Source of the DNA: Candidatus Sumerlaeota bacterium
GTDB lineage: Bacteria; Sumerlaeota; Sumerlaeia; JADFCW01
Assembly: GCA_017161705.1 (NCBI GenBank)
Contig: JADFCW010000004.1
Coordinates: 1 to 53,860 of the forward strand
Length of the DNA stretch: 53,860 nucleotides
Reading direction: 5' to 3'
A program made the position numbers and the translations under genes. A model generated the notes under the pieces. The model did no database searches. It saw nothing but the letters and a program-made list of their open reading frames with translations, and had not been told where the DNA came from. Shown in pieces: positions 884-16,279 of the stretch; positions within the stretch are counted from its first letter, which is position 1; every line of letters begins with the position of its first letter.

Positions 884-2104
884 TCAAGATCCGCTTTTGC
901 CGGACCGCTGGATCTTCTGGTGGGCTTCCTTCATGACCCGAGTCAGCACGGCCAGGTCCACCGGTTTCTCCAGATAGGCAAATGCGCCGAGTTCCTTGGC
1001 CATGCGCTCGTCGGCTTCCGAGCCATGACCGGTCAGGATGATGACCTCGACCGCCGGACGCTCGCGTTTGATCCGGCGAAGAACCTCCATGCCGTCTATG
1101 CCCGGCATCTTCAGGTCCAGGATCATCACTTCGGGCTCGTCGCGCCGCACGGCTTCGAGCGCCTGTTCGCCGTCATAGGCGACGGCCGGCTGCAATTCCC
1201 GCGCCCGCAAGCGATCCGACAAAGTCTCCACAAACTCCCGTTCGTCGTCCACGAGGAGAACCTTGATCGGAGGTTCAGCTTCGAGCGGGCCGAACGGCGT
1301 TTCCATTTGCACGGAAGCATCCACGCGGACCGAGACATCGAGGACGCCGGGGACCTCGCTGGCAAGGCGGCGCAGCTTCGCTTCGAGGCGCTTCCTCATA
1401 AAGACCTCCCGGTCCAACGTAATCAGAACCCGGCCGTTCTCGGAAGTCACGCGAAAAAAGTAGCCTTGCTCGACCAACCGCCGGTTCACTTCCGCCGCCA
1501 GAAGAAAGTCGCGGGCGGCCTGGCGCGAGCTCTCGGTCGGCTGAAGCGCCGGCCGACGGGCATGCTCGCAGATGCGTTCGATTGCATCCGCTGGCGGCCG
1601 CTCCTGCATGGGAAGAACCATGTCATAGAGCTGGGGGTCCCATGGTTTTCGCATGGTAAGTCGAAAGACCCAGTCATAACAAGCGTGGTCGTCGGCCTGG
1701 ATCATCCTGGCAGCTTTTCGGGCGGAAACTCCAAGCGCTTTCCGGGCCGCTTCGATCCGCCAGTCGCGGTTGGCAATCAGACAAACGCGCAGAACATGCG
1801 AGATTGCGCGGGGAATCAAATGACCCGCAAAGCCGTAATACACCAAATCCGAATCCTGAATCAAACCGGCCAGCGTCAGCCTCAGGCAGGCGAGGCACCG
1901 CTCGCGCTCGCGGGTGAAGCTGTTCAGAAGCGAGCGGCGGCCGCACAAAACGCGGCGGATCTTCTCTGGGGTCATCCCAAATTGCGCTGCGGTCTTTTCG
2001 ACCAAATCGTCGGCCACCAGCGGATATCCCATCTCGCGGGCCACGCCGCGGGCTACCTCATCCGCCCCGCAGTAGGATCCGCTGAAGAGGGTGATGATGG
2101 GCAT
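884..2104 (-). CDS. Cytidylate-kinase-like (Cytidylate_kin2-type) / BON-like / C-terminal receiver (REC) domain protein
   Basis: 406-aa ORF. The N-terminal half fits the cytidylate kinase-like family pattern (ITLFSGSYCGADEVARGVAREMGYPLVADDLV ... RVCLIANRDWRIEAARKALGVS ... LYDMVL). The middle is BON-like (GRVLITLDREV...VPGVLDVSVRV). The last ~120 aa are a CheY-type receiver (KVLLVDDEREF, VMILDLKMPGIDG, VIILTGHG, AFAYLEKP). Confidence 0.75.
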   Translation of the reverse strand: MPIITLFSGSYCGADEVARGVAREMGYPLVADDLVEKTAAQFGMTPEKIRRVLCGRRSLLNSFTRERERCLACLRLTLAGLIQDSDLVYYGFAGHLIPRAISHVLRVCLIANRDWRIEAARKALGVSARKAARMIQADDHACYDWVFRLTMRKPWDPQLYDMVLPMQERPPADAIERICEHARRPALQPTESSRQAARDFLLAAEVNRRLVEQGYFFRVTSENGRVLITLDREVFMRKRLEAKLRRLASEVPGVLDVSVRVDASVQMETPFGPLEAEPPIKVLLVDDEREFVETLSDRLRARELQPAVAYDGEQALEAVRRDEPEVMILDLKMPGIDGMEVLRRIKRERPAVEVIILTGHGSEADERMAKELGAFAYLEKPVDLAVLTRVMKEAHQKIQRSGKSGS

Positions 2105-2156: not shown

Positions 2157-4340
2157 TTACACGGGCGCCGCCTTTTTCTTGAACCGGACGAATTTCAACG
2201 GGCAATCCGCGGCGCGCGGGCAGTCTTCGCCGCTAAAACACAAGATATCCACGGCCGTCGCAACATTGGGATAAAAGTGGTCCCGCCCGATCCGGTCATA
2301 CAGTCCTGTTCGTTTCATCACATCCAGAACTGCGTCGTTGACTCCGCTCATGGACAGATCATAGCCAGCCTCGCGCAGGCGCTTGACCAGTTTGGCCAGC
2401 ATCTCCTCGCCCGACGCATCCATTTCGTTGATGCCGTTGCTGACGATGAGAATGTGTTTGACGCCGGGCATCGAAGCCACACGGTCCAAAATGGCCTCTT
2501 CCAGATAATTGACGCTGGCAAAAAACAGCGACCCGTTGAATCGGATCACCGCAATGCGGTCGCACGTCTCCAGCCCCCAGCGCTCGGCGCTCCGATAGGC
2601 GCCGTCGGGATGCTTCGATAGAAACGCGATTTCCGGCTTCATGTTCTTGAGCAGGAACAAAGCGATGGTCAGGACCACGCCCACCAGAATTCCCTGGTCG
2701 AGTTCCGGTGCGAGAATCAGCGTGCTGAAAAACGTGATCACCGCAATTGCGCCGTCGCTCTGGTGCACCCTCCAGTGATAGACAAATGCGCGGATATTGA
2801 TCAACCCCAATACAGCCATCATGATGATCGCCGCCAGGACCGACTGCGGGAGATAGTAGAGCAGCGGGGTAAAAAACAATAGCGTAACCACGACCATAGC
2901 GCTGCTGAAGGCGCTCGAAAAGCCTGTCACAGCTCCCGCCTGCAAATTTACCGCCGAGCGCGAAAAGGAGCCTGACACCGGATAGCTTTGCGTGAACGCG
3001 CCGACGATATTCGCCAGACCCTGTCCGATCAATTCGCGGTTGGGATTTAGTCTCTGGCCCGTTCGGGTCGCCATGGCTTTGGCAATGGAGATGGCTTCCA
3101 TAAAGCCGATCAGCGAGATGATAACTGCCATCGAAGCAAGATGGCCCACCGCCGACAGCTCCAGGTGCGGAAGGCGCAAACTTGGCAGACCTTTTGGAAT
3201 GGCGCCGACAACGGCGCCCCCTGCCGTCATGGTCAGGGCGTCTTCCGGGAGCCGGCCTTCGCCGACTTTCAGCCTCCAAATCCTTCCATGGGCCCGATTC
3301 TCGTTGTCGCTTTCTGTTCGCAGAATAAATCGCGGCGGGCCCTGAGCCGTTGCCGGACTGAGAAAAAGAAAGCCTCGCAGCTGGCTGCGCAGCGCGCGTG
3401 CGTCCTCTTTCATCTGTTCATCCTGAAGCGCGAGAATGGCCAGCTCGTGTTGGACCCTCGCGGCCTCGACGGAATGCGCGCCGTAGGCTGCTTTGGCCCG
3501 GCTGTAGTCCTCCGCTTTCCGGACCCGCTCGACCCCTTTGGCCTCGATCTCCGACAAAATGGCGTTGTACTGCCGAATCCCTTTCTGAACGGCTGGCGAA
3601 TCAATCTCGCCGATGGTAATTTTTTTTTGGCACTCAAATCCCAGCAAATAAGAAAGGACTACCGTACACAAAGCCGCCACCAGGACATAGGGAACCCGGG
3701 GCGCCAGCTGTTTCAGAACCAGCATCAGCACCAGCGCAAAGGTTCCCATCGCCAGTGTCGGCCAATGCGTGTATTGCAGGGCGGCCATAACCACTTTTAC
3801 CACCGTCTCGTAATGGTGCCGGCCGCTGTCCACCGACACGCCAAGAAACGCCGCCAGCTGGGAGGTAGCGATAATCAGCGCCGCCGCATTGGTGAATCCC
3901 GTCACCACGGGATGGGAAAGAAGATTGACCACCAGTCCTAGCCGCAGGACCCCGAGGGCAAATTGAAACATACCCACCATCAGTGCGAGAAGGATCGCAT
4001 ACTGGATAAATCCCGGCGATCCATGCGCGGCCAACGGCTCCAGCGCTGTGGCGGTCATCAGCGACACAATGGCGACGGGGCCGGTGGCCAGCTGGGCGCT
4101 CGAACCAAACAGCGCGGCAACCACGGGCGGAAGAAAGGAGGCGTAGAGACCGTAGTAGGGCGGCAAACCGGCCAGCTGGGCATAGGCCATGGACTGGGGG
4201 ATCAAAACAAAGGCGACGGTCAGCCCTGCAAAAAAGTCGGCCTGCAGATGCGCAACCGAATAACCTTTAAGCCACCGCAGAAAGGGAAAAAGGCCTAGAA
4301 GGATAGCGGCCGATGTTTGCTTCTGTGTTGCCGTCGGCAT
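2157..4340 (-). CDS. sulP: SulP family sulfate/anion permease with C-terminal STAS domain, carrying a ~140-aa insertion
   Basis: 727-aa ORF. SulP hallmarks are LRWLKGYS, DFFAGLTVAFVLIPQSMAYAQLAGLPPYYGLYASF, many TM segments and GAIPKGLPSL. The C-terminal STAS-like region includes IAVIRFNGSLFFASVNYLEE...HILIVSNGINEMDASGEEML. It starts 25 nt after the qmoC stop. Confidence 0.9.
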   Translation of the reverse strand: MPTATQKQTSAAILLGLFPFLRWLKGYSVAHLQADFFAGLTVAFVLIPQSMAYAQLAGLPPYYGLYASFLPPVVAALFGSSAQLATGPVAIVSLMTATALEPLAAHGSPGFIQYAILLALMVGMFQFALGVLRLGLVVNLLSHPVVTGFTNAAALIIATSQLAAFLGVSVDSGRHHYETVVKVVMAALQYTHWPTLAMGTFALVLMLVLKQLAPRVPYVLVAALCTVVLSYLLGFECQKKITIGEIDSPAVQKGIRQYNAILSEIEAKGVERVRKAEDYSRAKAAYGAHSVEAARVQHELAILALQDEQMKEDARALRSQLRGFLFLSPATAQGPPRFILRTESDNENRAHGRIWRLKVGEGRLPEDALTMTAGGAVVGAIPKGLPSLRLPHLELSAVGHLASMAVIISLIGFMEAISIAKAMATRTGQRLNPNRELIGQGLANIVGAFTQSYPVSGSFSRSAVNLQAGAVTGFSSAFSSAMVVVTLLFFTPLLYYLPQSVLAAIIMMAVLGLINIRAFVYHWRVHQSDGAIAVITFFSTLILAPELDQGILVGVVLTIALFLLKNMKPEIAFLSKHPDGAYRSAERWGLETCDRIAVIRFNGSLFFASVNYLEEAILDRVASMPGVKHILIVSNGINEMDASGEEMLAKLVKRLREAGYDLSMSGVNDAVLDVMKRTGLYDRIGRDHFYPNVATAVDILCFSGEDCPRAADCPLKFVRFKKKAAPV

Positions 4341-4365: not shown

Positions 4366-5586
4366 TCACGCGGCTTTCTTTTCTTCCAACGCCCCAGCGC
4401 CTAGTGCCCCTTGCGCTGCTTCGCGTCCGGAATATCGGCAGTAGATCATCGCCACGGTCCGATAAAGCAGATGGGCAAATTTGGAGTAAGGAAGATAGAC
4501 CAGCAGGAAAAACACAAACAGAAGATGAACGAAATACCAGCCGTAAGCAGGAATCGGCGTATTGACCAGCCGTGCAGCCTGGCAAATCATCCCCGTTACG
4601 ACCGTCAATCCAATCACGGCCAGAAACAACCAGTCATTGTAGCCGCTGGCCGGCGCCAGTTTTCCCCCGCGCAGCCGTACCGCGATCACGATCGCCAGAC
4701 CGGCCAAAAACACGACGCCGCCGAGATTGCCCAGCAACTTTACCGGATGCCATAGGCTCATAAACGGATAGCCGATCGTGTAGTATGCAAGGGCCGCCAA
4801 ACAGGTGGTCAGGAACATGGCGCCGAAGCCGTAAAACAGCAGGAGATGGCCCCAATAGCGGTTGGCCGTCGCCTCGCATTGCGTGAATTTTTTGTGGAGC
4901 AGGATTTCCTTGATGGTTTCAACGGCGCAGGCGATCAGGCTGGGGCTGCCCTCAGCCCGCCTGCCGCCCGCCCGTGCATCCATGGCCTTCCAGTAACGGA
5001 CCAGTCCGGCCAGAGCGCCGAGCAAGGCCAGACCGACGAAGGCCGTGAAAAAGATGATGATGGGATAGTGGGCGAAGAAGTGATCGAAGTTGGCCTGCTT
5101 GAATCCCTGTCCGTCGGGCAGAAAAATACCGGCGGCGAAAAAGTGCGAGCTCCCTTCGGGTCTGGCCGAAAATCCGCCCGTCGCCCAGATCGCCAGCGCC
5201 ATAAGCACGGCCGGAATTGCAAACAGAACGGGGAGCCATTTGGGCGATGCCACCATGCGCGCCAATATACTGGGCACCGCGTAGTGCTCGACGACCTGCT
5301 GGCGCACTGCCGCCAGCACATCGCCCGGATTGGCTCCGCGCGGGCACAACTGCGAGCAGTCGTTGCACTGGTGGCACATCCAGACATCGGGGTCGGCCAT
5401 CAGGCGGTCTTTGAGGCCCCACTGCGCCCAAAGCACTTCTTTGCGAGGAAAGGGTTCGGTGTCGGGCGACAAAGGGCAGGCCACCGTGCACGTGCCGCAC
5501 TGAAAGCATTTTTTCAGGGTGTCGCTATCGGCCAACAGCCGCCGCTTGAATTGAAGGTCGGGTTCAATCCATACCGGTTCTGCCAT
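4366..5586 (-). CDS. qmoC: Quinone-interacting membrane-bound oxidoreductase subunit C (HdrC-like Fe-S domain fused to HdrE/NarI-like membrane domain)
   Basis: 406 aa. Two ferredoxin-type motifs (CFQCGTCTVACP and CHQCNDCSQLCP) are followed by about 6 hydrophobic helices. It sits directly downstream of qmoB. Confidence 0.88.
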   Translation of the reverse strand: MAEPVWIEPDLQFKRRLLADSDTLKKCFQCGTCTVACPLSPDTEPFPRKEVLWAQWGLKDRLMADPDVWMCHQCNDCSQLCPRGANPGDVLAAVRQQVVEHYAVPSILARMVASPKWLPVLFAIPAVLMALAIWATGGFSARPEGSSHFFAAGIFLPDGQGFKQANFDHFFAHYPIIIFFTAFVGLALLGALAGLVRYWKAMDARAGGRRAEGSPSLIACAVETIKEILLHKKFTQCEATANRYWGHLLLFYGFGAMFLTTCLAALAYYTIGYPFMSLWHPVKLLGNLGGVVFLAGLAIVIAVRLRGGKLAPASGYNDWLFLAVIGLTVVTGMICQAARLVNTPIPAYGWYFVHLLFVFFLLVYLPYSKFAHLLYRTVAMIYCRYSGREAAQGALGAGALEEKKAA

Positions 5587-5616
5587 GATTTTCCCCCACA
5601 GTCCGTGCCGAATTCG

Positions 5617-7821
5617 CTACATTCCCTTGAACGGGTTGAATCCCACTTCTTTGATGGTTTCCATGAAGCCGCCGATCAATTCAGGAATCCGGTGATATTC
5701 CGTCAGCGCGAGCTGTTCCAGTCGTACGCGTTCGGATTCGAGAACCATGCTGGTCAGCGCTTCCTGAATATTGTCGCTGCGCGTGTTCATCAGCTCGCTG
5801 CCCTTGATAAAGTGGCACTGATAATCGTCGCCGTATTTGCAGCCGATCATCAGGATGCCGTCAAATCCGCGCGACAGAGCGTCCTTGATCCACACGACGT
5901 TGATCGAACCGAGGCATCGCACCGGGATGATGCGGATGTTGGGATCATACCCGAGGCGATAGCGGCCGGCAATGTCGAACGCCGGATAGGCGTCGTTCTC
6001 GCAAACCAGAACCAGCACTCGCGGTTTCTCTTCGGTCTCGTCGGGCACCTCGACCGCCTTAATCATCGCGCTCATCATCTCGATGCTGTAGGTGGCGAAA
6101 TTGATGATGCGCTCGGGGCAGGCGCCCATACAAATCCCGCAGCGCCGGCAGCGCGTGGGATTGGGCTCGGGCGTCCCCTTGACGTCTTCGTTGAGCGCTC
6201 CGAAGGGACATTCTTCCGTGCAGCGTTTGCATTGCGTGCAGCGTTTGAGATAGAAATCCGGCCAGCTCAGGTCGTTGGCCCGCGGATGGACCGCCGCGCC
6301 CCGCGCGGTCATCGCAATGCACTGCAGGGCTTTGAGGGCCGCGCCCGATGCATCGCGCACGGCCGCCGCGCTGTCCATCGGCTGGCGCACACAACCGGCG
6401 GCATAAATGCCTGTGCGGCGGGTTTCATACGGGAAACAAATGAAGTGCGAGTTGGGAAATCCATATTGGTCCACCGGCAGGTCGCCGCCTTGCCGATAGG
6501 CCAGATGGAGAATTTGTGCATTGAGCGTCGAAGGCACCATGCCGGTGGCCAGAACCACGAGGTCGGCCTTGATCTGGATGTTCTCGCCCAGGAGGGCGTT
6601 GCGCACTTGAATGACGAGGCTTTTGTCGGGCTCTTCGGCCACCTCGGCCACCTCGCCTTTGGTCAGGAAAATGCCCTCGTCCTCCTGCACGCGGCGATAG
6701 AAGTTTTCATACTGGCCCGGCGTTCGCATGTCCTTGTAGAGGACATAGACCTGCGCGTCGGGGTTCTGCTCGCGGATATACACGGCCTGCTTGAGCGAGG
6801 TCATGCAGCAGGTGGTGGAGCAGTAGGGAAGACGTTCGGGGTCGCGCGAGCCGGCACATTGAATAAACGCCACGCGGCGCGCGGGCCGGCCGTCGGATGG
6901 GCGGACGATTTTCCCCGCCTTTGCCATAGCCTCCAACTCCGCGTGCGTGATTACATTCTGGCAGCGGCCAAAGCCCAAGTGAGCCAGTTGCGCGGCATCA
7001 TAGGGCCGGGCGCCCGTGGCCAGGATGATGGCGCCGATTTGAAATTCCTTCCTGGCGCCCGTGGTTTCCGTCTTCGCCGCCTCGGCTCCTGCTTGCTCCG
7101 GTTTCTGCCCGTTGCCCTGCCGAATCGTCACGCCGAACATTCCCGGCTGGCCGGTGATTTGCTCGATCTCCACGGAGAGCAACACCTCGATGTCCGGGCA
7201 TTTGCACACTTCCTCGATTTTTCGGGCAATCTCGGGGACTTCGAGGTCGCGGTAAGGCGGTTTTTGCGGCGTATCGCGATGGAGGCCGGCGACATGGCCG
7301 CCGAGAGCAGACTCTTTTTCGACGAGAACCACTTTTGCACCCGCACGCGCGCAATCCAGCGCCGCGGTCAGGCCGGTCAGGCCGCCGCCGACCACCAGCA
7401 CGGAGTTGTGAACCGCCGGGGCGATGTACGGCTCGGGGATATCGGTTTTCCTGGCCTTTGCCACGGCCATCCGCATAATGTCTTCGGCCAGCATCCGCGT
7501 GTCGTCCGGATCCTCGTCCGCCATTCGACGCCAGGCCATTTGCTCGCGCAGATTTGCCCGCTCGACAATGGTCGGCGGCGGGAAGGCAAACAGGTCGGTG
7601 TTCACGCGGCCGGAGCACGCGCCGATGACCACGGTGCACGGACGCTCGCCCGTCAGGTCTTTCCGGATCGCAGCCAAACCCTCCTCGCTGCATAGACAGG
7701 GATGCGTGATGCAGCTGGCGGGTTTGGAGTCTTTCTGTACCGTTTTTGCCAGCGCCTCGATATCCACGGCTTCCCCGATGCCGCAGCCGCTGCACAGATA
7801 CACTCGGATGTCTCGTTCCAT
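5617..7821 (-). CDS. qmoB: Quinone-interacting membrane-bound oxidoreductase subunit B (HdrA-like flavoprotein with 2x[4Fe-4S] and MvhD-like C-terminus)
   Basis: 734 aa. FAD fold VVGGGLTGLTAALDCA. HdrA-like CAGSRD..LPYCS..CC motif. Ferredoxin motifs CTQCKRCTEECP and CRRCGICMGACP. The C-terminus is MvhD-like (VLVCENDAYPAFD...GCKYGDDYQCHF). Confidence 0.9.
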   Translation of the reverse strand: MERDIRVYLCSGCGIGEAVDIEALAKTVQKDSKPASCITHPCLCSEEGLAAIRKDLTGERPCTVVIGACSGRVNTDLFAFPPPTIVERANLREQMAWRRMADEDPDDTRMLAEDIMRMAVAKARKTDIPEPYIAPAVHNSVLVVGGGLTGLTAALDCARAGAKVVLVEKESALGGHVAGLHRDTPQKPPYRDLEVPEIARKIEEVCKCPDIEVLLSVEIEQITGQPGMFGVTIRQGNGQKPEQAGAEAAKTETTGARKEFQIGAIILATGARPYDAAQLAHLGFGRCQNVITHAELEAMAKAGKIVRPSDGRPARRVAFIQCAGSRDPERLPYCSTTCCMTSLKQAVYIREQNPDAQVYVLYKDMRTPGQYENFYRRVQEDEGIFLTKGEVAEVAEEPDKSLVIQVRNALLGENIQIKADLVVLATGMVPSTLNAQILHLAYRQGGDLPVDQYGFPNSHFICFPYETRRTGIYAAGCVRQPMDSAAAVRDASGAALKALQCIAMTARGAAVHPRANDLSWPDFYLKRCTQCKRCTEECPFGALNEDVKGTPEPNPTRCRRCGICMGACPERIINFATYSIEMMSAMIKAVEVPDETEEKPRVLVLVCENDAYPAFDIAGRYRLGYDPNIRIIPVRCLGSINVVWIKDALSRGFDGILMIGCKYGDDYQCHFIKGSELMNTRSDNIQEALTSMVLESERVRLEQLALTEYHRIPELIGGFMETIKEVGFNPFKGM

Positions 7822-7833
7822 GCTGGAATTCCC

Positions 7834-9135
7834 TCAGGCAGTAATGGACGGAGTGGACGTTGTGGAATGAATCCACTGGATCGCTTTGATGGCCGCTCCC
7901 GTGGCGTCTTGAATGGCTGTGGCCACGTCGGTCGGCCCTTTGGCTGTGCCGGCCGGAACGATCCCGGGCAACTGGCCGTCGGGCGCGCAGAAGCCGTATT
8001 CGTCGCAGACCAGTTGGAGCGGCAGAGGCGCGGTGCGCACACTGGGCACCATGCCGGTGGCCAGAACGACCAGGTCAGCCCGCATTCGCAGTTTGCCGCC
8101 GCCGAGAATGTCCTCGACCTCGATGTTGAGATCGCGCGTGGCCGGGTCTTCCCGGACTTTGGCCACTTTGCCTTTCTGCACCACGATGGCCGGATCGTTT
8201 TGCATACGCGTGAGGAAGTCCTCAAAAATGCCGCCGGCGCGCAGGTCTATATAAAACACATAGGCTTTCGATTCCGGGTTTTGCTCGCGCAGGTAGCCGG
8301 CCTGCTTCAGCGAGGCCAGACAACATACGCTCGAGCAGTAGGGCAAGTGGTTTTCGTCGCGGCTGCCCGCGCATTGCACAAACACGGCCGTCTGCACGGG
8401 CTTTCCGTCCGACGGCCGCAGGATCTTTCCCTGCGTCGGGCCGTTCGGCGCCGCCAGACGCTCCATCATCACGTTGGTGATGACGTTGGCGCATGTGCCG
8501 AATCCGAGATTGGCGAGGCCCGAGGCATCATTGGGCACCCAGCCCGTCGCCACGACAATCGCGCCGACGTTCAAGGTGATCCGCGTGCTCTTCATGTCAA
8601 GGTCTATCGCGCCGTATTGGCACGCTTCGACACACTTGGCGCATTCCTTCCCCTTGCAGGTTTTCATATCGATCACATAGCGCATCGGCAGGGCCATCGC
8701 GTGGGGAAGGTAAATGGCCCTGGTTGTGCCCAGACCATAGTCGTTCTCGCTAGGCCGCTCGACCGGACAGACCTTGGTGCAGTCATCGCAGGCCGTGCAC
8801 TTCTGGTTGACATAGCGGGGCTGGATTTCAAGCGTCGCTTCAAAGGCGCCGACCCGGCCTGTGATGGCGACCGCGCGGGCCAGCGTCAGCACTTTGATTT
8901 TGTCGTGGGCTTTTCGGATCCGCTGGTAATTGATCTCCAGTCCGCAGGCGGGCGGGCACAGCTTGGGAAAATACTTGTTCATCAAAGCGACGCGTCCGCC
9001 CAGCGACGCCGTCTGTTCCGCCAGATAGACCTCATAACCCATCTCGGCGAGTTCGACCGCCGCCGTGATTCCGCTGATCCCGCCGCCGAGAACCAGTATG
9101 GCGTTGGAGCGCGATTTTCCGTTATCCTGACTCAT
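7834..9135 (-). CDS. qmoA: Quinone-interacting membrane-bound oxidoreductase subunit A (HdrA-like flavoprotein)
   Basis: 433 aa. FAD fold ILVLGGGISGITAAVELAE. Fe-S motifs CTACDDCTKVCP and CAKCVEACQYG. HdrA-like CAGSRDENHLPYCSSVCC. It stops 12 nt before the qmoB start. Confidence 0.9.
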   Translation of the reverse strand: MSQDNGKSRSNAILVLGGGISGITAAVELAEMGYEVYLAEQTASLGGRVALMNKYFPKLCPPACGLEINYQRIRKAHDKIKVLTLARAVAITGRVGAFEATLEIQPRYVNQKCTACDDCTKVCPVERPSENDYGLGTTRAIYLPHAMALPMRYVIDMKTCKGKECAKCVEACQYGAIDLDMKSTRITLNVGAIVVATGWVPNDASGLANLGFGTCANVITNVMMERLAAPNGPTQGKILRPSDGKPVQTAVFVQCAGSRDENHLPYCSSVCCLASLKQAGYLREQNPESKAYVFYIDLRAGGIFEDFLTRMQNDPAIVVQKGKVAKVREDPATRDLNIEVEDILGGGKLRMRADLVVLATGMVPSVRTAPLPLQLVCDEYGFCAPDGQLPGIVPAGTAKGPTDVATAIQDATGAAIKAIQWIHSTTSTPSITA

Positions 9136-10027
9136 CTTGCTTCCCCGCAGGTTTTTTATCGAACGGACTGGACAACCCTGGACCCGCCGCTTGGGCGCCC
9201 GGCCGAGCTTCCATCGCCGCCTTTATGACTGCAGCAACCTCTTTCCGGACCTCCAGCGTCGGTTCCTGCCAAAGCGCAAAGCGAATCCACTCGAAGCCAA
9301 ATTTCATCAGCTCGACATCGTCCGTTCGGATGGCCTCGATGCGGTCTTCGGCCACCTGGAACTTTCGCAGAAACCGGGTCTCGAATACAAACCGGCGAAA
9401 CTTGTCTAGATCATACAAGACCATGAAGAGCATGTCCATTTGTTCGGGCGTCAGCGACTTGCCGGCGCCCAGCCGCTCGTCCTGGGCAAGGTCCTGGAAA
9501 AATCGTCCCTGGGCTTCATATTCCGGGACGCCCTGGTCGTCGAGCCATTCGGCCACGCGCCACTCGCGGCTTTCTCCCAGCCCGCAACAAAAGTCCTCGC
9601 GGATCAAAAAGTAGAAGGCGGGGTCTTCGCCGCCCGATGTTCGGGGAGGGGCTGCCCGGCCCAGAGGATACGTGCGGCACGACCACGGACGGTTCTCATA
9701 GATCGAGCACCCGGCCGGCTCCTCCAAAAAGGGACACGCCAGTTGTGCGTCTTCCCTCATCCGAAGAAGCACCACCGGATAGCGCATCGTTTTGCTGAAG
9801 GGGATGATGCAATAGCGGTCCAGAAACTCGCCCGATGGGATGCCCAGAGCGCGCTTCATTCGAAGGACGTCATAGGGGGTGAGGAAGATGTTCACATCGT
9901 GGCAGCAATGGTTGAAACAGGTCAGATTGCGGTGGCAAAGAAAGTGAAAGCGGCCGTCCGCGCCGAGGCGCGGCCCGTCGCGCAGAATTTGCTCTTTGAA
10001 CTTCTCGAACGCGTTATCTTCCAACAT
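9122..10027 (-). CDS. YkgJ/UPF0153-type (CxxCxxCC family) cysteine-cluster protein
   Basis: 301 aa. Motifs: C-x5-C-x3-CC (CHRNLTCFNHCC) and ACPFLEEPAGCSIYENRPWSCRTYP, typical of the putative zinc/iron-chelating CxxCxxCC family. Its 3' end overlaps the qmoA start by 14 nt. Confidence 0.7.
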   Translation of the reverse strand: MLEDNAFEKFKEQILRDGPRLGADGRFHFLCHRNLTCFNHCCHDVNIFLTPYDVLRMKRALGIPSGEFLDRYCIIPFSKTMRYPVVLLRMREDAQLACPFLEEPAGCSIYENRPWSCRTYPLGRAAPPRTSGGEDPAFYFLIREDFCCGLGESREWRVAEWLDDQGVPEYEAQGRFFQDLAQDERLGAGKSLTPEQMDMLFMVLYDLDKFRRFVFETRFLRKFQVAEDRIEAIRTDDVELMKFGFEWIRFALWQEPTLEVRKEVAAVIKAAMEARPGAQAAGPGLSSPFDKKPAGKQDESG

Positions 10028-10033
10028 TATGGT

Positions 10034-10315
10034 TTAGTCCTTCCGATCGGCCTCCGGCTGCGCGAGTATGCGGTTCTTGTGTGCCTCGTAAGACCAGCAC
10101 GGCAGGGGGCCGCTTTCGCCCGTGGCCGGATCGAAGCGATGCCGATAGGAGGCCCTCTGGTGATACTGGCTCATCATCCATTGCCATCCCCGAACGAAGT
10201 AAGGACACTGGTCGTTGAAGCAAACGTATTGCGGGGCCGACCCCCATGATGAGTCCTCCGGCGGCAACCAGAGCGTCATGGGTTGGCTGCAATGGGGACA
10301 AGCGGGAATGGACAT
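10034..10315 (-). CDS. Small four-cysteine zinc-ribbon protein (93 aa), function unknown
   Basis: I place the start at ATG 10315 ([13 protein letters not shown]...), which has GAAGGAA 10 nt upstream. The GTG-started extension in the track (to 10438) has no such support. Cys pairs are CPHC and CFNDQC. The stop lies 6 nt before the next gene start. Confidence 0.6.
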
Positions 10316-10450
10316 GGTTACAACATTCCTTCGCGTGGTGTTCCATTCATGGTTTGGCCGGCGCGCCTCGGAGAACTCTTCCGCACCGCCGGTCGGGAGA
10401 AGGCAAGCGATGAACATGCAGAGATGGAAAAATTCCACGCGCCTTTCGAC

Positions 10451-10475
10451 GGGGGGCGCCTTTGCAGCGCCCCCC
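10451..10475 (-). other. GC-only RNA stem-loop (9 bp, 7-nt loop) about 30 nt downstream of the aprA stop
   Basis: Plus strand reads GGGGGGCGC-ctttgca-GCGCCCCCC, a perfect 9-bp stem. No immediate U-run follows on the minus-strand transcript, so this is not a canonical terminator. Confidence 0.6.
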
Positions 10476-10505
10476 GGTCAAAAAGCAGGCTGCCGCTTGC
10501 GTGGT

Positions 10506-12428
10506 TCACCCGCCCAGAAGCTCGTGTTCCTGGGGTTCGGGATAGATGTGCAGCATGGGCCGCTTGATCATCTCCCATTCTTTCTTTTCGGGGTCCCAGC
10601 GGCAATTGGCAAAGCAGTGCCAGTTCTTTTCGTCCAGACGCGGGAAGTCCGCCCGCTTGTAGTAACCCGGCCAACGGGTTTCCTCGCGGAACAGGACCGT
10701 GCGCGTATGGGCTTCGGCCTGCCACATGCGCTGGATATTCTCCCAGCAGCGGAGCAGCTCGTGGAGGTCGCTGGCGGCCAGCTTTTCGGAGTCTTCCTTG
10801 AGATAGCCGAGCAGCTCCAACGCCCGCTCCAAACAGGCCTTGTTGGTGGTGAACTGAGCCGAGACGCCGCCCACGTATTCGTCCATGATCTTTTGCAGGC
10901 GGAACATAAACATCTTCGGCTTGATGAAATTCGGGTTGATGTCCGGATCGCTCGACGCGTGTTTGTGTTCCTCGAACAGCTGGAGCGGTTTGTAGATCCG
11001 GGCTTTCAACTCTGCGATCTGGGCCGGGTCGACCTCAGGCAGTTTGTTGTTCTCGACGATGAATTTGATGGCCGCCTTGCCGACGATGCGTCCTTCGGCA
11101 TGGGAGCCCGACGAGAACTTGTGCGACGAAGCGCCCGAGGCATCGCCCGCGCAGAACATCCCCTTGACCGTCGCCATGTGGGCGTAGCCCCAGAAGTATT
11201 CCTTCCGGGTCTCATCGGTCTGGAGGTCTTCGGGGCCGCTGACCCATGCGCCCGACGCGCCCGAATGCGAGCCGATGAAGTACGGCTCGGCCGCTGCGAT
11301 CTCCGAGGATTTCTTCTCGGGCTCGACGTTCGTTGCCGCCCAGAGAACGGCCTGGGAAATGGTCATGTCGAGGAAGTCTTCCCACGCCTCGTTCTCCAGC
11401 TCTTTGAGTTTCTTCTTGGCGGCTTTTTCGTCGCCCGCTTCGGCGGCAATCTTTTGAATTGCCTCCTCGGTGCGCATATAGATCGGGCCTTTGCCTTCCA
11501 TGATGTCGAGCATGCCCAGATAGTTGCGCAAATTGGCCGGAATCGGCTTGACCAGCCCGTACGGGCGCCAGTTCTCCAGTTCCGCCTTCCGCTCGACCAT
11601 ATAGTCGCCGCCTTCAGAGTTGGTCGCGCGCGACTTGAAAAGCAGGAACCACGCGCCCACTGGGCCGTAGGCGTCCTTGAAGCGCACGGGGATGAACCGC
11701 ACTTCCTGGCTGGTCATTTCCGCGCCGGCCTGGATGGTGAAGAATGCGCTCGAACCGGAGTTCCACGGCGGATACCAGGCGCGGCCGAGACCCTCGCCCG
11801 AACTCCGGGGTTTGAATACGTGCACGGCGCCGCCCATGGCTACGATGACGGCCTTGGCGCGGAAGACGTAGAACTTGTTCTCACGCACGCTGAATCCGAC
11901 AGCCCCGGCGATCCGGTCGCCGTCCATGAGCGGATGCGTGATGAACACGCGCTCGAAATACTCGCCGCCGGCTTCCGCCAGGGCGTTCTTGGCCGCCTCC
12001 GCCACAACGACCTTGTAGGATTCGCCGTTGATCATCAGCTGCCAGCGGCCCTCGTGGACATAAGCGCCCTTCTCGTCCTTCCAGATCGGCAGGCCCCATC
12101 GTTCATACAGGTGGACGGTGGAGTCCACATGCCGCGCGATGTTGGCCACAAGGTCCTCGCGCGTAATGCCCATGAGGTCCATGCGGACGTAGTCCACGTA
12201 GTCCTTGACCGTGTTTTTGCCGTCGCACAGGCCGACATACTGGTTGATCGCCGACAGGCCCATAGCCACAGCGCCCGAACGGTCCATGGCCGCCTTGTCC
12301 ACCAGCGTCACTTTCAGGCCGTATTTCTTGGCCCAATACGACGCCTCGACGGCCGCACCACAGGCTGACATACCACCACCGAGGATTAGAAGGTCGGTGG
12401 TGACTTCAATGGTTTCGAAGTTCTCCAT
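10506..12428 (-). CDS. aprA: Adenylylsulfate (APS) reductase alpha subunit
   Basis: 640 aa. FAD fold LLILGGGMSACGAAVEA with full-length AprA-like sequence. Strong SD (AGGAGGAGAGGAT then ATG). It follows aprB after 18 nt. Confidence 0.95.
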   Translation of the reverse strand: MENFETIEVTTDLLILGGGMSACGAAVEASYWAKKYGLKVTLVDKAAMDRSGAVAMGLSAINQYVGLCDGKNTVKDYVDYVRMDLMGITREDLVANIARHVDSTVHLYERWGLPIWKDEKGAYVHEGRWQLMINGESYKVVVAEAAKNALAEAGGEYFERVFITHPLMDGDRIAGAVGFSVRENKFYVFRAKAVIVAMGGAVHVFKPRSSGEGLGRAWYPPWNSGSSAFFTIQAGAEMTSQEVRFIPVRFKDAYGPVGAWFLLFKSRATNSEGGDYMVERKAELENWRPYGLVKPIPANLRNYLGMLDIMEGKGPIYMRTEEAIQKIAAEAGDEKAAKKKLKELENEAWEDFLDMTISQAVLWAATNVEPEKKSSEIAAAEPYFIGSHSGASGAWVSGPEDLQTDETRKEYFWGYAHMATVKGMFCAGDASGASSHKFSSGSHAEGRIVGKAAIKFIVENNKLPEVDPAQIAELKARIYKPLQLFEEHKHASSDPDINPNFIKPKMFMFRLQKIMDEYVGGVSAQFTTNKACLERALELLGYLKEDSEKLAASDLHELLRCWENIQRMWQAEAHTRTVLFREETRWPGYYKRADFPRLDEKNWHCFANCRWDPEKKEWEMIKRPMLHIYPEPQEHELLGG

Positions 12429-12446
12429 ATCCTCTCCTCCTAACCC

Positions 12447-12887
12447 TTACTTGATGGTGTAGACTTCCTTCAGACGTAGTGCTTCGGGTTCCTGAGCCAG
12501 TGCCTCACTGTTCAGATCGTCCTGAGCAGTGGCGTAACCGCCGTTGGGCTGCGCCTTGCCCTCTTCGGTGGTCCGGGTCGGGAACTTGAACCGTTTGACC
12601 ATTCCATTGCGGAATTTCACGGTCCAGAGAATGCTGTCGGAGCTGCGCATGGGAAGCACACTGGCGCCCATCGGCACGAAGTCCGCGTAGCCGCGAACCT
12701 CGATGGCCTGTGTCGGGCAGATTTTCACGCAGTTGTAGCATTCCCAACACATTTCGGGTTCGCGGTTATACGCCTTCATGATCTCCTTGTTCAAGACCAT
12801 GAGGTCGTTTGGACAGATATACTGACATGCCGTCTTGTCCAATGCCTTGCACCCATCGCATTTCTCCGGAATGACGAAACTCGGCAT
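12447..12887 (-). CDS. aprB: Adenylylsulfate (APS) reductase beta subunit
   Basis: I place the start at ATG 12887 (MPSFVIPEKCDGC...), preceded by AAGGAGGTG at 7-nt spacing. The track ORF extends 8 codons further. Two ferredoxin motifs (CDGCKALDKTACQYICP and CWECYNCVKICP) plus a long C-terminal tail are typical of AprB. Confidence 0.93.
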   Translation of the reverse strand: MPSFVIPEKCDGCKALDKTACQYICPNDLMVLNKEIMKAYNREPEMCWECYNCVKICPTQAIEVRGYADFVPMGASVLPMRSSDSILWTVKFRNGMVKRFKFPTRTTEEGKAQPNGGYATAQDDLNSEALAQEPEALRLKEVYTIK

Positions 12888-13182
12888 TACATCCACCTCC
12901 TTTCCTTCCAAAGTCTGGTTCGATCAAAAGCCTGGTTGGACTCACGGGCAGGGATATCTCGCCCGCTTGTTCAAGAAAAAAATCACAAACTTCCTTCCAC
13001 TCTCTTCCCCCTCCAGCAAGCACCTTTTTGCCTATCAGGGTATTATCATCAGTCTGGTATTTGCTAAGAACCGAATAACTACGGAGCAACGGGATTAGGG
13101 TTGTTTTTTGGCATTGTAAAGGAAAATCAGCATCTGTTTTTCAGTTTTATCTGTATAATATTTACATACACAGGTTGGTTCG

Positions 13183-13234
13183 AAAAAAGACAAGGGCGAA
13201 ACCCGAAGCAGGAAAACTGCCGATTTTCGCCCTT
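13183..13234 (-). terminator. Rho-independent terminator downstream of sat
   Basis: The minus-strand RNA forms AAGGGCGAAA-(23 nt containing an inner GCAG/CTGC pair)-TTTCGCCCTT, a 10-bp perfect stem. It is followed by GTCTTTTTT. It lies about 80 nt after the sat stop. Confidence 0.6.
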
Positions 13235-13311
13235 TCTTCCGGCCTTTTATCGTGTATTTCGGCCCTCCAACCTGCTTTTCTCTCCGCTTTCCGAGAGGCT
13301 GTTCCCTCGGC

Positions 13312-14529
13312 TCAGCCGCCAGTAGCCGCACGATGAAGTTTGATCTCCACCTTTTGCGAGGCATCCAACTGCTTGTAGTAGTCGCGGAGAATTTCCAGCA
13401 CTTCGGGACGGCTGAACTGCGGTGGAACCTCGCCTCCCTCGGACAGGGCTTTTCGCAGCGCGGTTCCGCTCAGCAGCAACCGGTCTTCTTTGCCATGCGG
13501 GCAGGTTTTCATCGAGGCCATGCCCTCGCACTTGAAGCAGTAGAACGTCCAGTCAATGTTCAGCGGCTGGATGACCAGGGCGTCTTTGGGAATCTCCTCG
13601 AAAATCTTTTGGGCATCGAACGGCCCGTAATAGTTGCCCACACCGGCGTGGTCGCGGCCGACGATCAGGTGGCTGGCTCCGTAGTTCTGCCGGAAGCACG
13701 CATGGAGCAGAGCCTCGCGCGGGCCGGCGTAGCGCATCTCAAGCGGGTAGCCTTTTTGAATCACGCTGCCCTTGGGGAAATACTTTTCGACCAGCACGTC
13801 AATGCACTTAACGCGCACCTCGGCCGGAATGTCGCCCGGTTTGAGCGCTCCGACCAGCTGGTGGATGAACACGCCGTCCATGACTTCGAGGGCAATCTTG
13901 GCGAGATATTCGTGGGAGCGGTGCATGGGGTTGCGCAGCTGAAGGGCGGCGATGCGTTTCCAGCCGCGCTCTTCGAACAGCGCCCGGCATTCCGCGGGCG
14001 TGGCGTAGAGTCCCTTGAATTTTTCCGGATACTCGCCCTCGCTGAAGACCTTGACGGGTCCGCCCAGATTGACTTCGGCTTGCTCCATGACCTTGGCCAC
14101 GCCCGGATGCTCGGGGTCGGTCGTCTTGAAGACCTCTTTGCACTCATGCGCCTTATCTATGGTGTATTTCTCTTCGACCTTCATGGACCCCATCAGCTCG
14201 TTGTGCTCGGGATCAATCAAGGCAATCTCTTCGCCCTCTTTGATCGAGTTGGCAAACTCGCGCGACACCGACAGGGTGATGGGAATCGGCCAGAAGATGC
14301 CGTTGCTTAGCGTCATATGGTCGCACGAGCTTTGCCAGTCGGCCTTGTTGAAGAAGCCGGTCAGCGGGGAAAACGCCCCGATGCCCATCATGATCAGGTC
14401 GTCGCGCTCGCGCGTGGTCATGGTCCAGGACTTGAACGTTCGGGCTCTCTGAACGGCCTCCTTGAGGGCCTCGCCCTCCAGTTTCAAGGGTTTGAGCGTG
14501 CCGCCATGCGGAGGAACCAAACCAGACAT
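13312..14529 (-). CDS. sat: Sulfate adenylyltransferase (ATP sulfurylase)
   Basis: 405 aa. ATP sulfurylase motifs [11 protein letters not shown] and [19 protein letters not shown] lies upstream of the ATG. Confidence 0.95.
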
Positions 14530-14627: not shown

Positions 14628-15065
14628 TTATCCGTAAGGATACATTGCCTTCTTGATCAGAGCCAGACGCTTCAAAATACGCTCGTGTTTCAGTTCGTCG
14701 AGGAGAAGGTATTCGAGCAGATACGCCTGCACAGGCATCTTCTTTCCTTCCAGCTGCTTCAACGATTGGCGGGCAAGCGAGATGGTTTCTTTCTCCAGCC
14801 GAACGTGGTTTTCGATCATGTCCCAGACTTTGCCGATGTCTTCCGGGGTCAACGAGATCGTTTTGGTTTCAAGACTATCGGCGATCAGTTCCTGCACGCG
14901 GTAATGCATCTGAGAATCGCGCTGAATGATTTCCATAATCAGGCGCACAATTGGGTTGTCGGTTGCCTCGATAATCCGTCCGGTCGAGGCTACCGAGGCA
15001 TTTTCGATTCCCTTCCATTGTTTCATGTTTTCAACGATTTTTTGCTGAATTTCCTTGGTTTTCAT
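14628..15065 (-). CDS. Uncharacterised all-helical protein (ferritin-like/four-helix-bundle suspected)
   Basis: I place the start at ATG 15065 (MKTKEIQQKIVENMKQW...), with AAAGGA 8 nt upstream. The track ORF extends to 15158. It is helical and charged and contains LLDELKHERIL (ExxH). I cannot assign a family confidently. Confidence 0.55.
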   Translation of the reverse strand: MKTKEIQQKIVENMKQWKGIENASVASTGRIIEATDNPIVRLIMEIIQRDSQMHYRVQELIADSLETKTISLTPEDIGKVWDMIENHVRLEKETISLARQSLKQLEGKKMPVQAYLLEYLLLDELKHERILKRLALIKKAMYPYG

Positions 15066-15336
15066 GGCAGGTATCCTTTCTTTTAGGTTTATTGGCAACT
15101 CTGCATAAACGCATCCGATTTTGGCCAGGTGCATGGAAATTCTATTCATGTCAGACAAATCTACGCTGCGAACGACCCATACGTGATATCGCCCCTCCCT
15201 CTTGTCAAGTCGGAATTCACAGTCAATTTCGGGCCGCCTGCGTCCGGCATCGCGAGAAGAAACATTTTGCAGGTTATTCTGATTTCCCTTGCGCGGTATG
15301 TCCCCGTGGCTCTATTCTCTTTGTCGAATAATCAAA

Positions 15337-15383: not shown

Positions 15384-15716
15384 ATGGCCGGCGGAAACGT
15401 GCTCGAAATCACCGACGCGAATTTCGATACGGTTGTTGCCAAGTCCGATGTTCCGGTTTTGGTGGACTTTTGGGCGCCGTGGTGCGGCCCCTGCCGCGCA
15501 ATCGGTCCAACGATTGCGCAGCTGGCCGATCAATTCGCAGGCAAGATCAAGGTCGGCAAGGTCAACGTGGATGAGAACCAGGACCTGGCACTCAAGTATG
15601 GCATTTCCAGCATCCCAGCGGTTCTGCTGTTCAAAGGCGGCGAGCGTGTGGATGAATTGATCGGGGCGGGGCCCAAGTCGTCTTATGAGGCGATGATCAA
15701 TCGCCATATAGGCTAG
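15384..15716 (+). CDS. trxA: Thioredoxin
   Basis: 110 aa counted from ATG 15384. Has the WCGPC active site and a typical thioredoxin length and pattern (VLVDFWAPWCGPCR...IPAVLLFKGG). Confidence 0.93.
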   Translation: MAGGNVLEITDANFDTVVAKSDVPVLVDFWAPWCGPCRAIGPTIAQLADQFAGKIKVGKVNVDENQDLALKYGISSIPAVLLFKGGERVDELIGAGPKSSYEAMINRHIG

Positions 15717-15784: not shown

Positions 15785-16279
15785 ATGCGATGTCCATATT
15801 GCGGCAATTCCGATAGTCGGGTGGTCAACTCGCGGGTGTCCCAGAAGGGGCTGGCGATTCGGCGTCGGCGCGAATGTCCCCAGTGTAAGTCGCGTTTCAC
15901 TACGTTTGAATACGTCGAGAAAATGCCGATTATCGTCATCAAGAGCGACGGCACGCGCGAGCAATTCGACCGGCAGAAAATTGTGAAGGGATTGACCAAG
16001 GCCTGCGAAAAACGCGGTATTCCTTTTTCAGAACTCGAGCGTCTGGCCGAGGAGGTTGAACGAACCCTCCATAACTCGATGGAACAGGAAGTGCCCTCCA
16101 AATGGATCGGGCAGCTGGTGCTCGAACGGTTGCGGGAGCTGGACAAGGTGGCCTATGTGCGGTTTGCGTCGGTCTATCGCGACTTTCGCGACATCAGCGA
16201 GTTCAGCCAGGAAATTCAGGCCCTGCTCCAGAGGGAACAAGGCAGTCGGAAACCGCCGAAAGAAGGAAATCTCCCATGA
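15785..16279 (+). CDS. nrdR: Transcriptional repressor NrdR (Zn-ribbon plus ATP-cone)
   Basis: Begins MRCPYCGNSDSRVVNSR...CPQCKSRFTTFE and continues into an ATP-cone region. 164 aa. Confidence 0.92.
   Translation: MRCPYCGNSDSRVVNSRVSQKGLAIRRRRECPQCKSRFTTFEYVEKMPIIVIKSDGTREQFDRQKIVKGLTKACEKRGIPFSELERLAEEVERTLHNSMEQEVPSKWIGQLVLERLRELDKVAYVRFASVYRDFRDISEFSQEIQALLQREQGSRKPPKEGNLP

Follow-up and report, generated by a model that had tools for sequence, protein, structure and literature searches.

Two small genes that stand between aprA and qmoA in a 53,860-nucleotide stretch of DNA from a Candidatus Sumerlaeota bacterium (contig JADFCW010000004.1; hereafter the window) encode a 93-aa C4 zinc-ribbon protein, which we call Z, and a 301-aa protein of the PF03692 (YkgJ/CxxCxxCC) family, which we call Y. 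From their homologues and genomic neighbourhoods, we show that Z and Y are a soluble, co-inherited and usually translationally coupled pair belonging to the cluster for the dissimilatory reductase of adenosine 5'-phosphosulfate (APS) in many phyla. The pair is an undescribed, widespread accessory module of a well-known enzyme, drawn from two poorly understood protein families, and it very probably forms a complex that works on or with the reductase, AprBA. APS reductase is central to the sulfur cycle worldwide, and Z-Y is a concrete, clonable candidate for two questions about it: how it is supplied with electrons, and what the origin and role of its methyl-lysines are. The pair may be an unknown enzyme that methylates APS reductase in many uncultured bacterial phyla.

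Hundreds of genomes carry Z-Y in their apr cluster; they represent phyla that have newly been linked to the sulfur cycle, namely Zixibacteria, Ignavibacteria/Kapabacteria, Gemmatimonadota, Acidobacteriota, Planctomycetota, Sumerlaeota, Abyssubacteria, Omnitrophota and some Deltaproteobacteria metagenome-assembled genomes (MAGs). All named carriers are MAGs, and we found no cultured host. The only published trace of the pair that we found in the literature is the uncommented "hyp-hyp" of Thiel et al. (PMC6338057); the pair goes unmentioned in the synteny papers of Neukirchen (2023) and Anantharaman (2018), and we found no paper that joins YkgJ and aprA in a relevant way. The pair could serve as a genomic marker that separates types of apr cluster.

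Open reading frames and hidden Markov model (HMM) matches give the gene order sat-aprB-aprA-Z-Y-qmoABC-sulP on the minus strand of the window. An earlier note, made from the sequence alone, had described the two reading frames between aprA and qmoA, and its sizes, motifs, Shine-Dalgarno site, gap and overlap are borne out in every detail. Z begins after a spacer of 190 nt, its ATG preceded by GAAGGAA at 10 nt upstream; homologue N-termini favour this start over a longer GTG reading frame that reaches 10438. Six nucleotides separate the stop of Z from the start of Y (TAA ACCATA ATG), the Shine-Dalgarno sequence of Y (GGAAGGA) is located within the 3' end of Z, and the end of Y overlaps the qmoA ATG by 14 nt (ATGAGTCAGGATAA).

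We then surveyed the neighbourhoods of both genes. Scanning one genome per species for Y gave at least 583 confirmed stretches, of which the best 80 loci were examined by tblastn with the window proteins, and scanning metagenomes for Z gave at least 553; in all, 160 loci from about 10 phyla were examined. The 80 genome loci come from Zixibacteria, Ignavibacteria, Kapabacteria, Gemmatimonadota, Planctomycetota, Acidobacteriota, Omnitrophota, Abyssubacteria and others. Z is directly upstream of Y in 79 of them, and the 80th is cut at its 5' end; likewise, Y is near Z in all 69 metagenome loci that are informative downstream, in 55 of them beside it on the same strand and in 14 convergent and no more than 4.5 kb away. 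Over 131 loci, the median distance between the stop of Z and the start of Y is −4 nt, with 69 overlaps (27 at −4, 22 at −8) and 49 gaps of 0-30 nt. Because Z and Y are always found together and at this spacing, the pair is a unit of the APS reductase cluster. Apparent Z-Y and AprA-Z gene fusions in loci L025 and L071 were rejected, since in-frame stops are present.

The place of this unit is equally regular. Directly upstream of Z stands aprBA in about 68 of the 80 genome loci, which is wherever the contig reaches far enough, apart from the rearranged loci described below, and among the 65 metagenome loci informative upstream, Z is preceded by aprA in 44, by qmoC in 11 (an automated count) and by hppA in 2, while in 4 of the remaining 8 (L117, L125, L137, L152) it follows a diverged qmoC. 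Thus, in about 95% of loci, the pair sits in a sat/apr/qmo cluster, directly after aprA, hppA or qmoC, and it is detached from apr/qmo in only about 3 of the 65 (L122, L142, possibly L099). That the two genes are accessory to the apr/qmo cluster, as the earlier note had supposed, is therefore upheld by orthologues that are nearly always found there. One locus, L087, carries about 1.4 kb of unidentified sequence between aprA and Z (5585-7001); its qmoB matches in two pieces (11539-13908), possibly owing to a frameshift or insertion.

Several rearrangements separate the pair from one or another of its usual neighbours. In 4 Ignavibacteria loci (L019, L032, L045, L062), hppA, encoding a membrane H+-pyrophosphatase (Pfam H_PPase, 942 bits), lies between aprA and Z; the same insertion occurs in metagenome loci L134 and L147. 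The order in these Ignavibacteria-type clusters, qmoAB-sat-aprBA-hppA-Z-Y-qmoC, links pyrophosphate removal and sulfate activation in a single operon. One genome locus has sat-aprBA inverted, and several have qmoAB upstream of sat. The exception to aprBA linkage is one lineage with Z after qmoC. This layout, seen only in the Z-side sample (L094, L117, L119, L125, L130, L131, L133, L137 and L156, at about 7000-10000), places Z after aprA-qmoABC, followed by a 252-aa SEC-C-motif protein and two tandem Y paralogues on the opposite strand; these paralogues are 37-44% identical to the window Y and keep its Cys motifs intact. The Z sequences of this layout resemble those named from 'Deltaproteobacteria bacterium' MAGs.

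The genes downstream of Y differ among loci. Y is followed by qmoA-qmoB(-qmoC) in 36 genome loci, directly by qmoC in 15, and by a NarI/DsrM-like and DsrK/HdrD-like pair in 3. In about 20 Zixibacteria and Ignavibacteriales loci, the operon sat-aprBA-Z-Y ends at Y, with no related gene following; a QmoC-like gene is divergent upstream of sat, and qmoAB is absent within 10 kb. The pair is thus not a constant companion of Qmo. The earlier note had proposed the two proteins as candidate accessory redox, assembly or docking factors of a Qmo-Apr module: the place of the pair in the apr/qmo cluster stands, while its linkage proves to be mainly with AprBA, the operon being just sat-aprBA-Z-Y in these loci and qmoAB lying upstream of sat or elsewhere in others. 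Where clusters are rearranged, the Z-Y pair usually follows aprBA more than qmoAB.

Two further features of these downstream regions were observed. A NarI/DsrM-like membrane protein and a DsrK/HdrD-like protein with Fer4_8 and CCG domains follow Y or qmoC in L006 (10856-13394), L008, L060, L022, L063 and L065, which suggests that some loci, of Zixibacteria and others, have a DsrMK-type module tied to Apr rather than Dsr. Loci of Zixibacteria and Ignavibacteriales further contain, next to Y on its downstream side and convergent with it, a gene for a conserved protein of about 230 aa (LWxMNDESGxxCWxAPEAIAE; L003 10915-11604, L010 10860-11537 and L012 11016-11759, all on the minus strand).

These arrangements raise the possibility that Z-Y is an electron-transfer adaptor, in which the pair, carrying one or two Fe-S clusters, would dock on AprB and pass electrons from AprBA to the membrane quinol module of the lineage, or the other way, be that module QmoABC, QmoC alone or the DsrMK-like pair. 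Purified QmoABC and AprAB fail to transfer electrons in vitro, and such a third partner was proposed (Ramos et al. 2012, PMC3333476); the need for one, described as debated in the earlier note, is indeed a published open question. Consistent with this role, most loci place the pair between aprA and the membrane or Hdr-like genes, Y overlaps qmoA in the window, and the divergence of Y tracks that of QmoA (rho 0.71) and QmoB (0.63) better than that of AprA does (0.37); these mirror-tree correlations are weak evidence, because every pair gives a moderate value and shared history confounds them. However, the operons that stop at Y have no membrane module following, one lineage has its Y genes on a separate convergent transcript, and neither a ferredoxin-like nor an HdrB/CCG-like sequence or fold was found by Pfam, a profile search of PDB sequences or Foldseek. 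Further, PF03692 has no known electron-carrier member, and textbook sulfate reducers (D. vulgaris, Thermodesulfovibrio) run aprBA straight into qmoABC, as the earlier note said of D. vulgaris. We consider an adaptor unlikely, though it is the main rival of the reading that we favour below.

The two genes could also be functionally unrelated passengers, fixed in a laterally mobile apr island. The AprA proteins of these loci share 69-99% identity although their phyla are very different, a sign that the cluster may have spread laterally. Against this, the pair holds its place through at least five different cluster rearrangements, is detached only rarely, is co-expressed with the pathway, and is under purifying selection. 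Compared with the closest relative, the Ca. Sumerlaeia MAG SKW40 (locus L001, JAOAGV010000021.1), dN/dS is 0.08 for Z and 0.115 for Y, next to 0.07-0.09 for QmoABC. Because of this low dN/dS and their large conserved families, Z and Y are real genes under purifying selection rather than chance reading frames, and we regard mere passengers as extremely improbable. The window is closely related to this 53.9-kb contig of SKW40, with uneven divergence: protein identity is 99% (AprA), 97% (Sat and AprB), 94-95% (Z), 94% (QmoC), 93% (QmoB), 91% (QmoA) and 88% (Y). No other protein of the cluster evolves as fast as Y, and among the aligned homologues only L001 shares its disordered C-terminal tail, the source of the qmoA overlap.

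Evidence for expression comes from a Kapabacteria population. Thiel et al. (2019, PMC6338057) give the order "sat-aprBA-hyp-hyp-qmoC" in Ca. Thermonerobacter thiotrophicus and leave it without comment. In Table S2 of that study, the consecutive genes are sat (...37015), aprB (...14), aprA (...13), a "hypothetical protein" (...12), a "Predicted Fe-S-cluster oxidoreductase" of COG0727 (...11) and a NarI-like protein (...10), a run that corresponds to our Kapabacteria locus L004. Table S1 lists sat, aprB, dsrAB and dsrC under the sheet header "Cluster_E_Strong evening", and from the same alphabetical run in that table we infer that aprA, Z, Y and the NarI-like gene share the evening diel cluster. 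A shared diel cluster implies that Z-Y is transcribed and co-regulated with the pathway in this mat population, the hairpin 3' of aprA notwithstanding. The concern of the earlier note that this hairpin might leave the two genes silent is thus answered by their grouping with sat, aprBA and dsrAB.

The hairpin itself is a conserved feature. It sits about 20 nt past the aprA stop in the window, its best 56-nt segment folding at about −40 kcal/mol, and the 221-nt region around it has a minimum free energy of −93.3 kcal/mol (z = −2.5). An equivalent strong, near-perfect, GC-rich hairpin follows the aprA stop in 70 of 70 measurable spacers (median about −31 kcal/mol), accompanied by a T-run in only 23. 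The stem CCUCCGG...CCGGAGG is common to many phyla, and all 18 sites of the strict palindrome CCTCCGG...CCGGAGG in 1.22 Mb of loci lie directly 3' of aprA. Rfam holds no family for this hairpin. The element probably stabilises the 3' end of the mRNA or acts as an attenuator, setting AprBA higher than the genes that follow.

A conserved palindrome between aprA and Z might instead be read as the target of a regulatory pair, with Z as an Ogr/Delta-like nucleic-acid binder, acting possibly via the aprA 3' stem-loop, and Y as a sensor of redox state or oxygen, the two together controlling expression of the cluster. The Pfam threshold for Ogr_Delta (PF04606) is passed by many Z homologues, most of which are precomputed as PF04606, while the window Z falls just short of it (25.6 bits; gathering cut-off 26.3); FliB-type clusters are oxygen-sensitive. 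However, in hppA-bearing loci the palindrome adjoins aprA, before hppA, rather than preceding Z, and its stems stay perfectly paired although their sequence varies, as expected of an RNA hairpin. Z, with a pI of 6.4, is not basic but acidic to neutral, and it is rich in Trp; it has no Ogr-type structural match in BFVD, a collection of predicted viral structures (best E 0.29), and its identity of 55-70% across phyla seems high for a transcription factor. We therefore judge a regulatory pair very unlikely, and rejected an Ogr/Delta-type transcription factor for Z, because the zinc ribbon alone matches and the charge and fold are contrary.

Z is a soluble protein of 10.9 kDa with no hydrophobic segment. 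Its ribbon cysteines are Cys6, 9, 32 and 37, the second pair lying in CFNDQC, and 74 aligned homologues show 17 invariant and 15 near-invariant positions over about 80 residues. We found 292 relatives at 52-95% identity. The family is small, since an exhaustive profile search of 1.84 billion representatives found only 277 clusters at 50% identity. An AlphaFold2 model from the family alignment (pLDDT 91, pTM 0.81) predicts a zinc ribbon, a helix and a beta-hairpin, for which Foldseek found no significant structural relative in PDB (best E 0.47). NCBIfam models provide a name for neither Z nor Y.

Remote Z-like domains also occur in fusion proteins (P0282, P0293, P0295, P0316, P0361, P0368 and P0373; further P0275, P0309, P0333, P0340 and P0375; P0318 and P0390). 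They are joined, in both orders, to class-I S-adenosylmethionine (SAM) methyltransferase domains (Methyltransf_11), and elsewhere to HEAT repeats with a second, C-terminal zinc ribbon or to a lipocalin-like domain (Lipocalin_5). The Z-like zinc-ribbon domain is a mobile module. One methyltransferase-Z fusion makes up a family of 1971 proteins, each about 353 aa long, whose names come from Desulfobacteraceae and Deltaproteobacteria MAGs. In 2 of 3 methyltransferase-fusion loci, a 2-thiouracil desulfurase/DUF1722 gene and a PNPOx-like gene adjoin the fusion gene.

Y has the CxxCxxCC/YkgJ affiliation that had been predicted for it, matching PF03692 at 39.3 bits (cut-off 23) over aa 33-123. Its motifs are C31-x5-C37-x3-C41C42 and CPFL..GCSIYENRPWSCRTYP, and across 93 sequences eight cysteines are invariant (31, 37, 41, 42, 98, 107, 117 and 147). 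The protein is soluble (pI 5.4, no hydrophobic segment) and comprises a Cys-rich N-terminal domain (about aa 27-150), a subfamily-specific helical domain (about 155-275) and a disordered, lineage-specific tail (276-301). Of 1808 detectable relatives, the best 120 are 46-88% identical, all contain PF03692, and they are from MAGs of Sumerlaeota, Zixibacteria, GN15, Planctomycetota, Acidobacteriota, Actinobacteria and Abyssubacteria. The AlphaFold2 model (family alignment; pLDDT 88.5, pTM 0.82) gives an alpha/beta fold for the Cys-rich domain; Foldseek found no significant structural relative in PDB (best E 1.5), and a profile search of PDB sequences retrieved nothing real. An HdrB/CCG-like catalytic subunit was rejected, with no PF02754 CCG domain in Pfam and no HdrB in the PDB profile search or Foldseek. 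The only NCBIfam family matched repeatedly among 30 members of the Y subfamily is NF038110 (FliB): 12 of the 30 match, the window protein does not, and the matches cover only profile positions 6-85 of 373 at 10-15 bits (cut-off 85). By these comparisons, Y is a superfamily relative and not itself a FliB.

Eight invariant cysteines would also suit a dedicated assembly or repair factor for the [4Fe-4S] clusters of AprB or the FAD of AprA, which could help lineages that meet oxygen; at least one carrier lineage encodes both aa3 and bd oxidases (Thiel et al. Table S2, PMC6338057). The strict aprBA linkage agrees with this idea, and a place after the strong aprA 3' hairpin suits a sub-stoichiometric helper. 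However, AprBA is canonical: AprA and AprB align end to end with their A. fulgidus counterparts (792 bits to 1JNR_A and 207 bits to 1JNR_B), and neither has extra or missing elements relative to that enzyme that would demand a partner. Nor did searches of Pfam, NCBIfam, PDB sequences and folds match Z or Y to known Fe-S or flavin assembly factors. We think such a factor decidedly unlikely.

The functional leads for Z-Y point more towards protein modification by methylation than towards electron transfer. In D. vulgaris, ApsB is trimethylated at SADSIMWTVK*FR and ApsA is mono-, di- and trimethylated at ...GAWFLLFK*AK (Chhabra et al. 2011, PMC3125180). ApsA was purified together with MetK and AhcY, and that study did not assign the methylating enzyme; the ApsA pull-down supplements list no methyltransferase, and we found no later identification of an Apr-methylating enzyme in the literature. 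Counterparts of both residues are present in the window, Lys265 of AprA (GAWFLLFK, codon 11634-11636) and the lysine of SILWTVKFR in AprB (codon 12615-12617). The AprA lysine is kept in 104 of 105 Z-Y-linked AprA proteins and the AprB lysine in 73 of 90 Z-Y loci, with Gln in its place in 15 and Thr in 2. Among PF03692 proteins, we found only FliB to be characterised; its CX4CX3CC motif holds an O2-sensitive [4Fe-4S] cluster, which is required for SAM-dependent methylation of flagellin lysines, and it has 8 conserved cysteines (PMC8598068).

Because three independent weak hints converge, namely the likeness to FliB, the methyltransferase fusions of Z-like domains and the orphan methylation of Apr, we favour, as a tentative possibility, that Y is an Apr-directed, FliB-like Fe-S methylase and Z its targeting subunit, together making the known Apr methyl-lysines. 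The CX5CX3CC motif of Y would hold an oxygen-sensitive [4Fe-4S] cluster and Y would use SAM; Z would recognise AprA/AprB as the substrate-targeting subunit; and the pair would methylate AprA (GAWFLLFK*) and AprB (WTVK*FR), the methyl-lysines in turn tuning the interactions or activity of Apr. In Desulfobacterota, a Z-type targeting domain fused to a class-I SAM methyltransferase may do the equivalent job. We hold the fuller version, in which Z-Y is the missing two-subunit APS reductase lysine methyltransferase and methyltransferase-Z fusions serve the classical Desulfobacterota, to be somewhat more doubtful.

Several observations weigh against a methylase. The likeness to FliB is limited to an 80-residue Cys domain and its 10-15 bits (cut-off 85), and transfer of function from FliB is weak because PF03692 is a general metal-binding module; no SAM-binding motif was identified. 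The methyltransferase fusions are a domain-level hint only, because they involve remote Z paralogues whose surroundings have nothing to do with apr, qmo or dsr. In 17 of the 90 Z-Y-bearing loci, Gln or Thr stands in place of the AprB lysine, and conservation of the AprA lysine does not discriminate, because A. fulgidus keeps it too. Finally, D. vulgaris, in which Apr is methylated, has only the unrelated DVU0851 after aprBA-qmoABC.

If a methylase is nonetheless encoded by Z-Y, Apr methylation would be a point at which dissimilatory sulfate reduction or sulfite oxidation is controlled, one that is both genetically encoded and widespread. The pair would then be a new kind of two-subunit enzyme, uniting FliB-superfamily [4Fe-4S] chemistry with a dedicated Zn-ribbon recognition domain. 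The association with apr would further give functional context to PF03692, a family in which we found one characterised member.

The features of the cluster in the window are collected in Table 1. The start of aprB is probably the ATG (MPSFVI) at 12887.

Table 1. Features of the sat-apr-Z-Y-qmo-sulP cluster, in window coordinates
Feature	Position	Strand	Basis
sat (ATP sulfurylase), first gene of the cluster	13312..14529	-	Pfam ATP-sulfurylase 302 bits + PUA_2
aprB (APS reductase beta)	12447..12887 (/12911)	-	Pfam APS-reductase_C
aprA (APS reductase alpha)	10506..12428	-	TIGR02061 908 bits
aprA 3' stem-loop, core CCGGGGGGCGC-UGCAAAG-GCGCCCCCCGG + flanking extension	10440..10487	-	folding
Z, 93-aa C4 zinc-ribbon protein	10034..10315	-	open reading frame + junctions
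Y, 301-aa PF03692 (YkgJ/CxxCxxCC) protein	9122..10027	-	Pfam 39.3 bits
qmoA (HdrA-like flavoprotein)	7834..9135	-	HMM
qmoB (HdrA-like, C-terminal FlpD/MvhD domain)	5617..7821	-	HMM
qmoC (HdrC-like Fe-S domain + NarI-like membrane domain)	4366..5586	-	HMM
sulP (SulP-family sulfate permease with STAS), last gene of the cluster	2157..4340	-	Pfam Sulfate_transp 342 bits + STAS

Beyond the cluster, a gene for a cytidylate-kinase-like protein fused to a response-regulator receiver domain lies downstream of sulP (884-2104, minus strand). Upstream of sat are a 176-aa reading frame for which Pfam gave no match (14628-15158, minus strand), a thioredoxin gene divergent from it (15402-15716, plus strand) and a frame that is NrdR-like by eye (15785-16279, plus strand). 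Long antisense reading frames of 352-949 aa on the plus strand (4846-7695, 7702-9228, 10215-12368 and 13252-14310), opposite qmoB, qmoA, aprA and sat, are taken to be shadow frames of a G+C-rich coding strand and not genes.

Among the known systems close to Y is FliB, the Salmonella flagellin lysine-N-methylase (PF03692; NF038110). Both have an N-terminal Cys-rich PF03692 domain with a CXnCX3CC motif and eight conserved cysteines; at the equivalent N-terminal position, the CX5CX3CC of Y is one residue longer than the CX4CX3CC of FliB. By contrast, Y is about 275 aa long and FliB about 400, their C-terminal domains are unrelated, and Y, which has an obligate Zn-ribbon partner gene, stands in a sat-aprBA-qmo context across the 160 loci rather than the flagellar/fliC context of FliB. 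Y shares the same Pfam domain with E. coli YkgJ and the COG0727 'Fe-S-cluster containing protein' family, and NCBI and IMG annotate its homologues as COG0727-type proteins of that name. Generic members of this family are short (about 100-150 aa) and of unknown function, and to our knowledge they show no apr linkage, whereas Y has in addition a helical domain, conserved over about 120 aa, and is strictly associated with aprBA in genomes.

Z is comparable to the Ogr/Delta activators of phages P2 and P4 (PF04606) in its C4 zinc ribbon and similar Cys spacing; unlike them, it has an extra conserved alpha/beta extension, is acidic to neutral, and occurs in contexts that lack phage genes. As a pair, Z-Y resembles DVU0851 ('QmoD') of D. 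vulgaris in being an uncharacterised extra of the aprBA-qmoABC operon, DVU0851 being co-expressed and present in the proteome, and in one metagenomic lineage Z occupies the same place after qmoC. DVU0851 was rejected as a Z homologue (25.8 kDa as against 10.9 kDa, reported as restricted to Desulfovibrio, no recognised domains), and it is not homologous to Y either; it is a positional analogue only. QmoABC and AprM are AprBA partners thought to link Apr to the quinone pool. Like them, Z-Y is encoded beside aprBA; unlike them, Z and Y are soluble and lack HdrA-, HdrC- or NarI-like domains, and the pair co-occurs with Qmo genes rather than replacing them.

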